A DNA stretch of 4,274 nt from a virus (taxonomy: Duplodnaviria > Heunggongvirae > Uroviricota > Caudoviricetes). Below are positions 1,256-4,274 of this stretch, piece after piece. Made by a program: the position numbers and the translations under genes. The notes under the pieces were generated by a model. The model searched no databases. It was given only the letters and a program-made list of their open reading frames with translations, and was not told where the DNA came from. The DNA is taken from IMG/VR virus record IMGVR_UViG_2690316115_000023; one strand, written 5' to 3'. How positions within the stretch are numbered: the stretch's first letter is position 1; each line of letters begins with the position of its first letter.

Positions 1256-1624
1256 GTTGGCAGCCTCCTCAGTGTGGTTAAGATAACCGCCACCGGAAAC
1301 GCCAATTTCGCTGGTGGCGGACTGTACAGGGTTGGCGTAACCGGACACTGAAGAAACCGGCGCGGATTGCTCCGCCCCCGTACAGCCCACCATTGATAAG
1401 GTGTGACTATGCGGCACAAAAAAACACGCGGGGCGCGTGTTATGCGCTTCAGTTTTGCCCAGGACGCCAATCCCGGCACCCGTTTTATGAGGTGCGCGGG
1501 AATCATAGCTATTTTCGACACTGGCGATCAACTGGTTTTTTTCTCCGATATTCAGGGCCAGAAAACGCCACACAAAGGCCGTTTGTGTGTGTACAAGGTG
1601 TGGTATATGATTTACGGCAACCAT
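1064..1624 (-). CDS. Two-domain read-through ORF (186 aa): tandem paralogous domains, tentatively Icd-like (host cell division inhibitor-like), joined by a Gly/Ser-rich linker
   Basis: ATG at 1624 with AGGAG 5 nt upstream (the ORF-track extension to GTG 1723 has no SD). The N-domain (PHLVHTQTAFVWRF...TEAHNTRPACFFV) and C-domain (PTLVHSQTAFLWRF...EREARSRCPSGCVAVFAARIRQEV) align with several synonymous codon differences (CAC/CAT, ACG/ACC, CGT/CGC), indicating protein-level conservation. There is no in-frame stop between them. TAA stop at 1066..1064. Confidence 0.5.
   Translation of the reverse strand: MVAVNHIPHLVHTQTAFVWRFLALNIGEKNQLIASVENSYDSRAPHKTGAGIGVLGKTEAHNTRPACFFVPHSHTLSMVGCTGAEQSAPVSSVSGYANPVQSATSEIGVSGGGYLNHTEEAANMATIPTLVHSQTAFLWRFIIFGASEHQIIHVTAWTEREARSRCPSGCVAVFAARIRQEVCHVQ
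1418..1440 (-). terminator. Intragenic intrinsic-terminator-like hairpin inside the first Icd-like domain
   Basis: On the minus strand: ACACGCG-CCC-CGCGUGU (7-bp GC-rich stem, 3-nt loop) followed by U6. It lies within the codons for NTRPACFF. Confidence 0.4.
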
Positions 1625-1748: not shown

Positions 1749-1760
1749 AGGTGACCACTT
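1749..1760. promoter_or_regulatory. Palindromic operator-like site 2 (AGGTG-AC-CACTT)
   Basis: Near-perfect inverted repeat overlapping the SD and start codon of the RHH gene; 35 bp from site 1. Confidence 0.45.
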
Positions 1761-2329: not shown

Positions 2330-2536
2330 TTAAGCAGCCGTTCCGCGTGCTTCCTGTTCGCGTTCTTTCTGCCAGGCCAACACATCATCCTCATACCATC
2401 CGCGACGGCGTAAACCAACGCGAAAACCCTGCGGAAATTCTCCGGCGTTGATCATGCTTTGCAGCGTGCTGTCTGCCTTGATGTGGATAATTTTTTTTAC
2501 TTCCTGGCGAAAGATAATTTTTCTGATTGCTTCCAT
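2330..2536 (-). CDS. alpA: AlpA / Vis / excisionase-like HTH prophage regulatory protein (68 aa)
   Basis: The segment STLQSMINAGEFPQGFRVGLRRRGWYEDDVLAWQ matches the AlpA-family HTH pattern (S-T-I/L ... G-x-F-P ... G-x-R ... W ... V-x-x-W). ATG at 2536, with AAGGT 8-9 nt upstream; TAA stop at 2332..2330. Confidence 0.85.
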   Translation of the reverse strand: MEAIRKIIFRQEVKKIIHIKADSTLQSMINAGEFPQGFRVGLRRRGWYEDDVLAWQKEREQEARGTAA

Positions 2537-2613
2537 CGTGATTTACCTTGTGAATCCGGTGTATTCCGGTGACAAATACGGTAAATCATCGGATATGGGT
2601 AAAAACAGTTCCC

Positions 2614-2643
2614 ACCGTTTTTAAACGGTATACACCGTTTTTT
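2614..2643. promoter_or_regulatory. Array of three alternating ACCGTTT / AAACGGT half-sites in the alpA upstream region
   Basis: ACCGTTT-TT-AAACGGT (2614..2629) overlaps AACGGT-ATAC-ACCGTT (2624..2639). The ACCGTTT half-sites are 20 bp apart. Direct repeats TCCGGTG at 2555 and 2565 lie immediately upstream of the alpA SD. Confidence 0.35.
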
Positions 2644-2669
2644 ATATTGATGATTTGAAATGGAATTAT

Positions 2670-2693
2670 AAAAAAAGCGGCATTTCTGCCGCT
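2670..2693 (-). terminator. Rho-independent terminator ending the int / small-ORF transcript
   Basis: On the minus strand: GCGGCA-GAAA-UGCCGC hairpin (6-8 bp stem, 4-nt loop) followed immediately by U7 (plus-strand A7 at 2670..2676). Confidence 0.7.
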
Positions 2694-2703
2694 TCCAGGA
2701 TTG

Positions 2704-2955
2704 TTACCGCCATTTTTTGGGCCTGCCTCCGATCTTCATAGATGCCGGACGTACGACCTTATCAATACTTACCGCCAGATTTCTGGAAGCGCCACGGGAT
2801 ACCAGAAAGTCTACTACCTGTTTTTTTGATGGGGCCGTCGTTCTGTCCTCCGGATCGTAGGTTGACCAAAATTCATGCTGAACCATCAGGGCCAGTTGCA
2901 GCCCGTCGCAATTGCATCTGATATTTTTTTGCATCTTAACGGTTTCATGTTTCAC
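2704..2955 (-). CDS. Hypothetical small protein (83 aa from GTG; 76 aa from the internal ATG at 2934)
   Basis: ORF between int and alpA with TAA stop at 2706..2704, followed 11 nt later by a strong minus-strand intrinsic terminator. The start is weakly supported: GTG with AAGG only 2 nt upstream, or ATG at 2934 with no clear SD. No family recognised. Confidence 0.4.
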   Translation of the reverse strand: MKHETVKMQKNIRCNCDGLQLALMVQHEFWSTYDPEDRTTAPSKKQVVDFLVSRGASRNLAVSIDKVVRPASMKIGGRPKKWR

Positions 2956-3032: not shown

Positions 3033-4274
3033 CTACACGGCTCGGATACCCCTTTTACCACTGGCGAGGGTTACGCCCGTCGCCGCAGCCTCGACAAATT
3101 CGCCCCACCAGCGCATCAGCACGATGCGTTTTTCTATGTAGTTGCTCCGGTTGTATGCCCGTCTAACTTCGTTGGTGTCGACGTGGGCAAGTGCCGCCTC
3201 TATTACGTCCGGCTCGAATCCTTCCTCGTTCGCTGCTGTGCTGAATATGGCGCGTAATCCATGAGACACCAGCACGCCAGCGAATCCCATACGCCGCAAT
3301 GCTGCGTTAGCTGTCTGGCTGTTCATCGGCTGCTGTGGGTCTTTCAGACTTGGGAAAACGTAATTGCGGTGGTGGCTGATTGGTTTCATGGCCTCCAGCA
3401 CCGCCATAGCCTGACCGGAAAGCGGGATAACGTGATCCCTGCGCATCTTCATACGTCCGGCAGGTATCGTCCATTGCTTCGCGTCCAGGTTGATTTCATC
3501 CCACCGCGTTGATGACGCTTCGGCGGGACGGGTTACGGTCAGTAACTGCCATTCAATCAGTAATCTGGTCTGCCGTTCTGTTGCCGATACTGATAAAGCC
3601 TGCATAAGCTCCGGCAGCTGTTCGGGGCGGATTGTTGGCATATGTTTTTTTACAGGTGAGGGAAACGCCTTACGCACATTCATAGCCGGATTGGCATCAA
3701 TCAGCCCACTGTTGGCGGCGTAATCCATTACCTCATTAACGCGCTGTAAAACCCGCTTGAGTGTTTCCAGGTTGCCGCGCTCCTTGATGGGGGTAAGCAC
3801 TTCAACGAACCTTCGGGCGGTGAGGGTATCTATTGGCGTGTTGCCGATGAACGGGAATACATATTTATCCAGCGAACGCCAGATGTCTTTAATCGTGTTG
3901 GGGGCCAGATTCTGGCTGATTTTCACCTGGTACCATGCCGCCGCCACATTTTCGAACGTGTTCCCTTGTCTTCGGGCCTCTGTCTCTCTTTTTTGCCTCT
4001 CGTGGTCCTGCGGGTCAGTTCCGGCACTGATTAACGTCCTGTACTCGCTACGGCGTTTTCTGGCATCAGCCAGGGAAACATCTTCAAGCGATCCAAAACT
4101 CAGCAATATTCTTTTTTTGTCCGATGGTCGGTAGTAGGAAAATCTCCAGAGTTTTGATCCAGACGGTTTGACCAGGAGAAAAAGCCCTCCGCCGTCCTGC
4201 AGGGTGTACTCCTTTTGCGCTGGTCTGGCTGCTTTGATCTGCACTGTGGTTAATGGGTGTGTTTTTCTCACCAT
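3033..4274 (-). CDS. int: Site-specific tyrosine recombinase, P4-type phage integrase family (413 aa)
   Basis: The N-terminus (KEYTLQDGGGLFLLVKPSGSKLWRFSY) is the typical P4-like integrase arm-binding region. The C-terminal catalytic domain carries TVTRPAEA (box I Arg), SHGLRAIFST (HxxR) and LAHV...RAYNRSNY (His and catalytic Tyr). ATG at 4274..4272, TAG stop at 3035..3033. The RBS and promoter lie outside the window. Confidence 0.95.
   Translation of the reverse strand: MVRKTHPLTTVQIKAARPAQKEYTLQDGGGLFLLVKPSGSKLWRFSYYRPSDKKRILLSFGSLEDVSLADARKRRSEYRTLISAGTDPQDHERQKRETEARRQGNTFENVAAAWYQVKISQNLAPNTIKDIWRSLDKYVFPFIGNTPIDTLTARRFVEVLTPIKERGNLETLKRVLQRVNEVMDYAANSGLIDANPAMNVRKAFPSPVKKHMPTIRPEQLPELMQALSVSATERQTRLLIEWQLLTVTRPAEASSTRWDEINLDAKQWTIPAGRMKMRRDHVIPLSGQAMAVLEAMKPISHHRNYVFPSLKDPQQPMNSQTANAALRRMGFAGVLVSHGLRAIFSTAANEEGFEPDVIEAALAHVDTNEVRRAYNRSNYIEKRIVLMRWWGEFVEAAATGVTLASGKRGIRAV

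Follow-up and report, generated by a model that had tools for sequence, protein, structure and literature searches.

Among Gram-negative phage-inducible chromosomal islands (PICIs), alpA is known as the induction switch of EcCICFT073: the helper phage switches the alpA promoter on, and AlpA acts on this same promoter, so that the gene is autoregulated by activation (PMC6092414). EcCIMP1 behaves likewise, with induction of alpA by helper phage and autoregulation, and this behavior was shown for these two islands only. The helper-phage inducer of alpA was not identified in the 2018 description of Gram-negative PICIs (PMC6092414), and the cis elements of the alpA promoter are not mapped in this paper, in PMC10111431 or in the work on EcCIMP1. 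In this study, we analyzed the region upstream of alpA (2537-2663) in a viral DNA stretch of 4,274 nucleotides, IMG/VR record IMGVR_UViG_2690316115_000023 (the window), in which alpA lies on the minus strand. Since alpA is the induction switch of both described islands, this region would govern the gene on which the whole island depends. On balance, we favor the view that it is the cis-regulatory region of alpA and that it combines two separate modules. In the proposed arrangement, module 1, a pair of CACCGGA words read as AlpA sites, would adjoin the ribosome-binding site, and module 2, a tandem pair of AAACNGT-N4-ACNGTTT palindromes read as the operator pair of a lineage-specific dimeric regulator, would sit 35-85 bp further upstream, with palindrome centers about two helical turns apart.

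By mechanism and descent, the closest described system is vis with the late promoter PLL of phage P4 and the Vis sites in attP, whereas by element type it is EcCICFT073. Vis represses PLL. Sites of recombination directionality factors (RDFs) are direct repeats one helical turn apart that are bound head-to-tail by monomers, and some RDFs bind the promoter of their own operon as well; P4 Vis, 186 Apl and P2 Cox belong to the subset that regulates its own operon via sites of this same kind (PMC7498355, PMC11963761). Vis is cited as acting both at the attachment (att) site and away from it (PMC7498355). Arrays of RDF sites are an already known kind of element, and the added value of the present locus is the lineage-specific operator pair. 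As in the island, the first gene of the leftward operon beside a P4-type int belongs to the AlpA family in P4 (vis), its product is annotated as excisionase and transcriptional regulator, and a C4/CI-type immunity RNA lies downstream. The words GCCGGA and ATCCGGT precede vis. In attP, close to the arm repeats of Int, the words TCCGA, TCCGT and CCGGA follow each other every 11 bp. The words before vis are, however, 14 bp apart instead of 10 bp, Vis and the island AlpA share 31% identity (tblastn, E 1e-4), and P4 has nothing like the tandem palindromes. Conversely, the island carries PICI-type packaging genes and not sid, delta and psu.

The consensus of Ogr/Delta-dependent late promoters is a TGT-N12-ACA dyad centered near -55. 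This dyad, the signature of a P4 PLL/P2-type late promoter under Delta/Ogr, is absent from both strands of 2537-2703. Nor does 2537-2703 hold a LexA box, a CII repeat, a CRP or IHF site or the AlpA binding element (ABE) of Pseudomonas aeruginosa. The P. aeruginosa AlpA is an antiterminator recognizing GGGACG (ABE) between -35 and -10 (PMC9371919). It is a larger, eight-helix, Q-like protein with DNA contacts at residues 128-142, whereas the island AlpA counts 68 residues; the likeness is in name only, both being small regulators associated with prophage-like loci. We rejected it as a model, the protein being unrelated and GGGACG being absent from 2537-2703.

EcCICFT073 has the same gene order as the island, sharing the families of int, alpA, the antisense YlcI/YnfO ribbon-helix-helix (RHH) gene, icd-like, DUF4222, replicase and capsid, and it carries phased direct-repeat words before alpA and in the att arms. 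Yet the word itself is different (ACACAAC/AACAAC). It is found twice before alpA, six times in an array that closely follows int, and in each of the two att arms. The integrase, the attachment site and the AlpA allele (about 30% identical, judged by eye) differ too, and EcCICFT073 lacks both the palindromes and orf76, the small gene that precedes the alpA control region in the island. In the group of 186 Apl and P2 Cox, RDFs with a second role in the control of early promoters, words of 6-7 bp form direct repeats at 10-11 bp, both at att and in the region of the own promoter (PMC7498355). Whereas seven Apl sites lie between two face-to-face promoters that are both repressed, in the island two or three words directly adjoin the ribosome-binding site, and a divergent lysogenic promoter is lacking.

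Composition and constraint of the alpA upstream region

The initial annotation had described three ACCGTTT/AAACGGT half-sites in alternating orientation. All three are present, at 2614-2620 (+), 2623-2629 (-) and 2634-2640 (+); they span 27 bp and are the sole copies in the window, against 0.65 copies expected by chance, with three or more copies anywhere in 5 of 200 shuffles. The true number of half-sites is four, however, as a repeat finder adds AAACAGT at 2603-2609 with one mismatch. Together they form two 18-bp palindromes of the form AAAC(G/A)GT-N4-AC(C/T)GTTT with centers 20 bp apart, each being part of one unit of a 20-bp tandem repeat (2603-2622 versus 2623-2642, 80% identical). The two TCCGGTG direct repeats, exactly 10 bp apart, were described correctly and read CACCGGA in the sense of the minus-strand alpA gene; the second word ends 15 nt before the start codon. 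The window holds five copies of this word where 0.49 are expected, a count reached in none of 200 shuffles. The three other exact copies stand singly at 410-416, 1052-1058 and 1291-1297, two of them on the gene strand. The location of all these repeats between the upstream terminator and the alpA start codon was likewise confirmed (Table 1). What had been seen as a single control region with candidate regulator sites is thus supported as such, but it consists of two independent modules.

The alpA region is present in 374 of 5426 complete Escherichia coli genomes and falls in identity classes of about 100, 91, 89 and 78% (distant DNA search). For the analysis of constraint, island copies were collected from a viral-contig collection via orf76 and not via the operator, in order to avoid conditioning on the motif; columns were counted over 30 distinct alpA upstream sequences from 60 loci, with one 20-bp deletion allele set aside. 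Substitutions affect 5 of the 28 half-site columns, two of these being the degenerate central base and the others variants of a single sequence. By contrast, 7 of the 8 spacer columns of the palindromes vary, with up to four alleles per column (the distal palindrome has the spacers GTAT, TATA, GGGT, GCCC, GAGT, GGAT and TCTA), as do 11 of the 17 columns of the linker, in which no indels occur between the lineages. In the CACCGGA words a single column out of 14 varies. Synonymous divergence (pS) between the two main lineages is near saturation, with 0.56 for alpA and 0.82 for orf76. Because the palindrome arms and the CACCGGA words are nearly invariant against this divergence of the flanking genes, we consider them protected, and the comparison of sequences argues that the repeats upstream of alpA are real, evolutionarily protected DNA sites. 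The terminator follows another pattern: its place is taken by a hairpin of other sequence followed by a T-run in the 78% lineage, so its function is conserved without its sequence. It would insulate alpA from read-through.

Conservation in related islands, which the initial annotation had proposed as a check, holds, with a different reach for each module. The palindrome arms are constrained within two island lineages but are absent from more distant homologous promoters, whereas CCGG(A/T) words one helical turn apart recur in the alpA promoters of Edwardsiella, Pectobacterium, Erwinia, Brenneria and Pantoea.

Table 1. Features of the alpA control region and of its surroundings in the window (palindromes carry no strand).
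Feature	Position	Strand	Remark
P4-type tyrosine integrase gene (int)	3033-4274	-	Window ends at the int start codon
orf76	2704-2934	-	Small conserved protein between int and terminator
Intrinsic terminator	2673-2696	-	Terminator scan; GGAAGCGGCAGAAATGCCGC followed by T7; ends the int/orf76 unit
Distal palindromic operator (putative)	2623-2640		Plus strand AAACGGT-ATAC-ACCGTTT; alpA sense AAACGGT-GTAT-ACCGTTT
Proximal palindromic operator (putative)	2603-2620		Plus strand AAACAGT-TCCC-ACCGTTT; alpA sense AAACGGT-GGGA-ACTGTTT
Linker of variable sequence and fixed length	2586-2602	-	Separates the operators from the conserved proximal block
Inverted-repeat 5' arm UGAUUUACC	2580-2588	-	Half of a 9-bp perfect repeat bracketing the CACCGGA words
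Invariant block TTTACCGTATTT	2574-2585	-	0 of 12 columns vary
CACCGGA word 1	2565-2571	-	Predicted site of one AlpA monomer
CACCGGA word 2	2555-2561	-	Exactly 10 bp from word 1
Inverted-repeat 3' arm GGUAAAUCA	2539-2547	-	Overlaps the GG of the Shine-Dalgarno AAGG (2546-2549)
alpA	2330-2536	-	68 aa; AlpA/Vis-type winged-helix protein, predicted excisionase and transcriptional regulator; start ATG 2536-2534
isrK RNA	1419-1495	-	Rfam, 66 bits; within the 'ash family' frame 1064-1723
C4 antisense RNA	1310-1397	-	Rfam, 77.6 bits; within the long 'ash family' frame 1064-1723

Candidate readers of the two modules

AlpA matches PHROG entries annotated 'excisionase and transcriptional regulator' (E 5.5e-7 and 3e-6), aligns over its full length with PDB entry 8c3t, 'AlpA family' (E 0.08), and has close homologues whose NCBI names include 'AlpA family'; a tblastn search against phage records gave no match at E <=1e-3. 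Because of the PHROG match, and because no excisionase besides AlpA is annotated in the island of L001, a 22-kb relative, we assign the TCCGGTG repeats to AlpA. As the window stops at the int start codon, the att arm was read in L001, which matches the window without a difference in the region upstream of alpA. The 22 kb of L001 contain 12 exact CACCGGA copies versus 2.5 expected. Three adjacent pairs among them have a spacing of exactly 10 bp; two of these pairs belong to the att arm and the third precedes alpA, and no such pairs appeared in 300 shuffles. Between int and tRNA-Pro, three CACCGGA words follow each other on the gene strand at exact 10-bp steps, adjoining the att core, and the same arm holds a CACCGAA/CACCGGA pair with a CCGGA 21 bp beyond it. 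In the second lineage, the corresponding arm contains the series TCGGA/TCGGT and GCCGGA/ATCGGT/ACCGGA, whose members are spaced by 10 or 20 bp. Repeats of another sequence, CGTATAACTAAA, occur as tandem and inverted pairs at both island ends (about 13355-13420 and 4775-4800 in L001) and are likely arm-type sites of the integrase.

The pattern extends to relatives that were found independently of any motif. A scan based on AlpA alignment, with one genome per species, yielded 19 loci with an AlpA identity of 34-64%. In 9 of the 12 loci with 58-64% AlpA identity, the Shine-Dalgarno sequence is closely preceded by two [CT]CGG[AT] words with a spacing of exactly 10 bp, and the att arms of relatives carry phased triplets, often like TCGGT / CCGTT / CCGGA. 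L059 and L069 are among the exceptions. In L059 a second AlpA-like open reading frame is located directly upstream of alpA, so that the promoter lies elsewhere, and L069 (Escherichia albertii) is devoid of CCGGA both before alpA and in the att arm. The word changes together with the AlpA allele in EcCICFT073 and in L069, which are few independent cases.

The same words at alpA and at att, changing with the AlpA allele, are the signature of RDF sites, and for this reason AlpA probably binds the CACCGGA words, acting as an excisionase-type protein. AlpA monomers would bind head-to-tail, with ACCGT (2578-2582) probably as a third word. The invariant block TTTACCGTATTT, which contains this ACCGT 12 bp upstream of the first CACCGGA, may be such a third excisionase-type word or else part of a weak -10 (TACCGT/CGTATT). 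At the words of the att arm AlpA would direct excision, and at those of its own gene it would provide autoregulation. The direct repeats had been annotated as candidate binding sites of a repressor or activator: they are conserved, but they need not belong to a separate repressor, AlpA itself being the most likely binder.

The palindromes have a far narrower distribution. The tandem pattern, allowing up to 2 mismatches, is found in the 22 kb of L001 only at its two alpA sites. In the viral collection it was found in 49 contigs, all islands of the two lineages, and among the 21 distinct contexts listed for 39 metagenome matches, 18 again belonged to these islands, the other three being sequences without relation to them. 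None of the 19 loci with AlpA relatives has the palindromes. Those loci carry upstream repeats of their own, such as ACTTCAA in five copies (Pantoea), A(C/T)TACCAAC in four to five copies, CCCTCAC, and CATTATTTAAA in three copies (E. albertii). A scan of phages with a single perfect palindrome returned at least 120 matches, apparently by chance (one inside a phage tail gene, one in an unrelated iteron array), and when the region was compared with 50,697 phage records by blastn, all matches had E >=1. One of them, in the attP arm of the P2-like phage Fels-2 (L235 42-73, AAAAACAGTGTATTGCGTTTAAAAACAGCGGG), shares 84% identity with the palindrome region along 32 nt, which is not significant (E 5).

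The palindromes combine conserved symmetric arms with free central bases and lie on the same face of the DNA, as is expected of tandem dimer operators. The same organization is found at OR1-OR2 of phage lambda (PRM/PR), where tandem palindromic dimer operators on the same DNA face have conserved arms and free centers. The proximal site of the island would also abut the -35 under one candidate transcription start. The island is unlike lambda in its unrelated sequence, in having two sites and not three, and in lacking an adjacent cognate repressor gene, unless this is orf76. We thus consider it more likely, on sequence grounds, that the palindromes are a tandem operator and that the dimeric regulator binding it is peculiar to this lineage of islands. 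The operator would be the likely entry point for the induction signal.

Concerning the identity of this regulator, the RHH protein, which had been proposed as a binder, is unlikely because its own gene is preceded by a different repeat. This plus-strand gene (YlcI/YnfO, Arc-like) has two copies of AGGTGACCAC just upstream, at 1714-1723 and 1749-1758 (+), 35 bp apart, which are probably the operators of the RHH protein itself. AlpA is an unlikely palindrome binder since relatives that keep AlpA-type words lack the palindromes. The palindromes were also considered as Int arm sites, which we rejected in view of the arm-type CGTATAACTAAA repeats at both island ends.

A more specific candidate is the orf76 protein. 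The gene is under purifying selection (pS 0.82 versus pN 0.175 for nonsynonymous divergence) and is present in every palindrome-bearing island, whereas it is absent from relatives without palindromes. Its product is a member, reduced to the C-terminal domain, of a large family with 1313 representatives (50% clustering, E <=1e-3) that has no Pfam, NCBIfam or PHROG annotation and is marked by the motif FWSTYDP..D..TAP.K..V..YL...G.S.N.A..ID...RP...GRP. Every close orf76 comes with the same palindromes, while the islands of distant family members (loci L327, L329-L332 and L275) have unrelated upstream repeats. Six distant islands in the viral collection encode a family member of about 240 residues upstream of alpA, all with different upstream repeats, and in all four of them whose sequence reaches upstream this gene directly follows a P4-type integrase. 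In the metagenome island L275, a family member likewise comes directly after a P4-type integrase, again with different repeats. Structure prediction for orf76 gave a bundle of three helices carrying a basic tail (pLDDT 80), for which no significant structural match was obtained. Because orf76 is located just upstream, before the terminator, it could be expressed together with int in the quiescent state. We tentatively raise the option, which we hold to be rather improbable, that the palindromes are operators for the orf76 protein. In this view, the island itself would encode a maintenance repressor of alpA, comparable in function to Stl in staphylococcal islands, which the helper phage would have to neutralize. 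A factor encoded by the helper phage is at least as likely a binder, by analogy with the experiments on EcCICFT073.

If orf76 were this repressor, Gram-negative PICIs, or at least this lineage, would gain the master repressor that is reported missing, and the dependence of induction on a helper phage would be accounted for. Regardless of the binder, the present analysis provides a base-level map that separates probable self-sites of AlpA from an independent lineage-specific operator pair in one widespread E. coli island lineage. The fragment 2598-2645 is a short, defined DNA bait for the palindrome regulator, with orf76 as a concrete candidate protein, and the predicted AlpA recognition word CACCGGA with the att-arm sites is directly testable for excision control. 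The operator pair offers a practical route to how these islands sense the helper phage.

Weighing of alternative explanations

Several points weigh against the two-module reading. The match of AlpA to Pfam PF05930 (E 0.0035, 17.6 bits) stays under the curated cut-off of 21, and the auto-activation reported for EcCICFT073 fits the position of the CACCGGA words less well than repression, or a function inside the transcript, would. For the palindromes, the two lineages amount to only two independent samples. In a folding model, the palindromes could form one nested hairpin, the 121-nt leader having a predicted energy of -38.7 kcal/mol (z = -4.1), and a difference between lineages from G.U to A-U is compatible with this. 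Part of the signal could be at the RNA level because CCGG is self-complementary and because the 9-bp inverted repeat around the words shows a compensatory change. Moreover, two promoter scans revealed no convincing sigma-70 promoter on the alpA strand, so the geometry of the palindromes relative to the transcription start is a guess. Two weak candidates have a conserved position. With TTTACC/TTTCCC-17-CGTATT and a start near 2568, the AlpA words would occupy +1 to +17 and the palindromes would be centered near -43 and -63, which would be the geometry of an activator-dependent promoter. With a -10 TATAAA/GATAAA at 2641-2646 and a start near 2634, inside the distal palindrome, the palindromes would be repressor operators within the early transcript. 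Two further promoter-like elements were noted: a perfect TATAAT at 2665-2670 (-) after the T-run of the terminator, which the 89-91% variants carry as TATAAA and the 78% lineage does not have, and TTTAAA-17-TATATT at 2620-2648 (+), on the opposite strand and inside the palindromes.

An explanation in which the main function of the region resides in its RNA, or in a cruciform of the DNA, with a leader hairpin or attenuator, or a CCGG stem hiding the ribosome-binding site, providing translational or termination control, is unlikely in our judgment. It draws on the stability of the leader fold and on the 9-bp stem, which displays one compensatory change from A-U to U-A in the 78% lineage and one wobble change. 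Several relatives and P4 vis also have a predicted CCGG:CCGG hairpin whose outer stem differs in sequence, and when flank complementarity was tested in nine lineages, the combined p was 0.006. A stricter test, in which pairing with the Shine-Dalgarno sequence was compared with shuffled upstream sequence over 14 lineages, was null, however (combined p 0.6), and given these two outcomes we do not claim a family-wide hairpin hiding the ribosome-binding site. With respect to the palindromes, 97.8% of the cells pair in the nested register, but no double-sided change is seen. We rejected local 7-4-7 hairpins, as A.C replaces their central pair in 8 of the 14 distinct sequences compared and covariation is lacking here as well. 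Base pairing alone would not demand that all four arms repeat one 7-mer. This repetition, together with the lack of double-sided changes, makes a protein site likelier than a hairpin, and it is therefore a protein, and not a nucleic-acid structure, that we infer to read module 2. An RNA-based mechanism also cannot account for the same words, phased at 10 bp, in the untranscribed att arm; the word of EcCICFT073 is not self-complementary, and no Rfam family matches the alpA control region.

Another idea is that AlpA alone reads both modules, the arms being variant AlpA words over which the protein oligomerizes from the proximal words across the palindromes and so activates or represses its own promoter. 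The arm core ACCGT does resemble the word core ACCGG, and in relatives belonging to several genera, ACCGTTT(AC)-type words form the middle site of the triplets in the att arm. RDFs accept degenerate sites and can extend along the DNA (PMC7498355), and AlpA acts on its own promoter in EcCICFT073 (PMC6092414). Nevertheless, relatives with CCGG(A/T) words have unrelated upstream repeats instead of palindromes, the inverted orientation of the arms misfits head-to-tail binding, and the spacing of 27 bp from the palindromes to the proximal word on the same strand is out of helical phase. ACCGTTT is also missing from the att arm of this island, as read in L001. We consider a role for AlpA at both modules very unlikely. 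Finally, the repeats might be neutral leftovers without function, e.g., slippage duplications in an AT-rich spacer. Natural changes in copy number do occur: in L092 and L093 one 20-bp unit is precisely deleted, with L093 also having a stop codon in alpA, whereas L004 and L097 have gained a 10-bp unit and carry three CACCGGAATA units in which the 10-bp period is kept. Yet neutral drift would hardly leave arms and words nearly invariant while flanking genes reach a synonymous divergence of 56-82%, the words are conserved across genera, and the motif counts exceed all or nearly all shuffles, which makes this explanation extremely improbable. The division into AlpA words and a lineage-specific operator pair thus remains the reading that we prefer.

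The island and further observations

Judged by its gene content and layout, the window is part of a PICI of the EcCICFT073 type, i.e., an E. coli phage satellite. It is 97.5% identical to chromosomal islands of E. coli that are about 8.5 kb long and located at tRNA-Pro, and the matches in the viral-contig collection measure 7-13 kb. The tRNA-Pro island of L001 is likewise about 8.5 kb long and includes a RepA-type helicase, terS and a capsid gene. The order of the island is int, a hypothetical gene, alpA, the antisense RHH gene, the C4 and isrK RNAs, ash/icd-like, DUF4222, the RepA helicase, terS and the capsid gene. As is typical of the Gram-negative PICI layout, the island is small, with int and alpA co-oriented at one end and followed by genes for replication and packaging interference; the four-zone scheme of PICIs fits this layout (PMC10111431). 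The genes in the window are chiefly on the minus strand, starting with int and orf76, which are followed by the terminator, the repeat region, alpA and then small ash/icd-like/DUF4222 genes.

Downstream of alpA, the C4 and isrK RNAs point to an RNA immunity module of the P4/P1 type. The coding sequence of alpA includes, at 2482-2490 (-), a perfect DnaA box (TTATCCACA); this box is not kept in the 78% lineage and probably occurs by chance. Two natural rearrangements affect alpA or its control region. In L007 (RM13745), the control region is intact and followed by about 13 alpA codons, while the remainder has been replaced by unrelated sequence and no alpA is annotated. In P0038, the control region is wholly deleted and the N-terminal part of orf76 is fused in frame to the C-terminal part of alpA, resulting in a protein of 90 aa; this sequence was deposited under the nematode Cooperia oncophora and presumably represents bacterial contamination.

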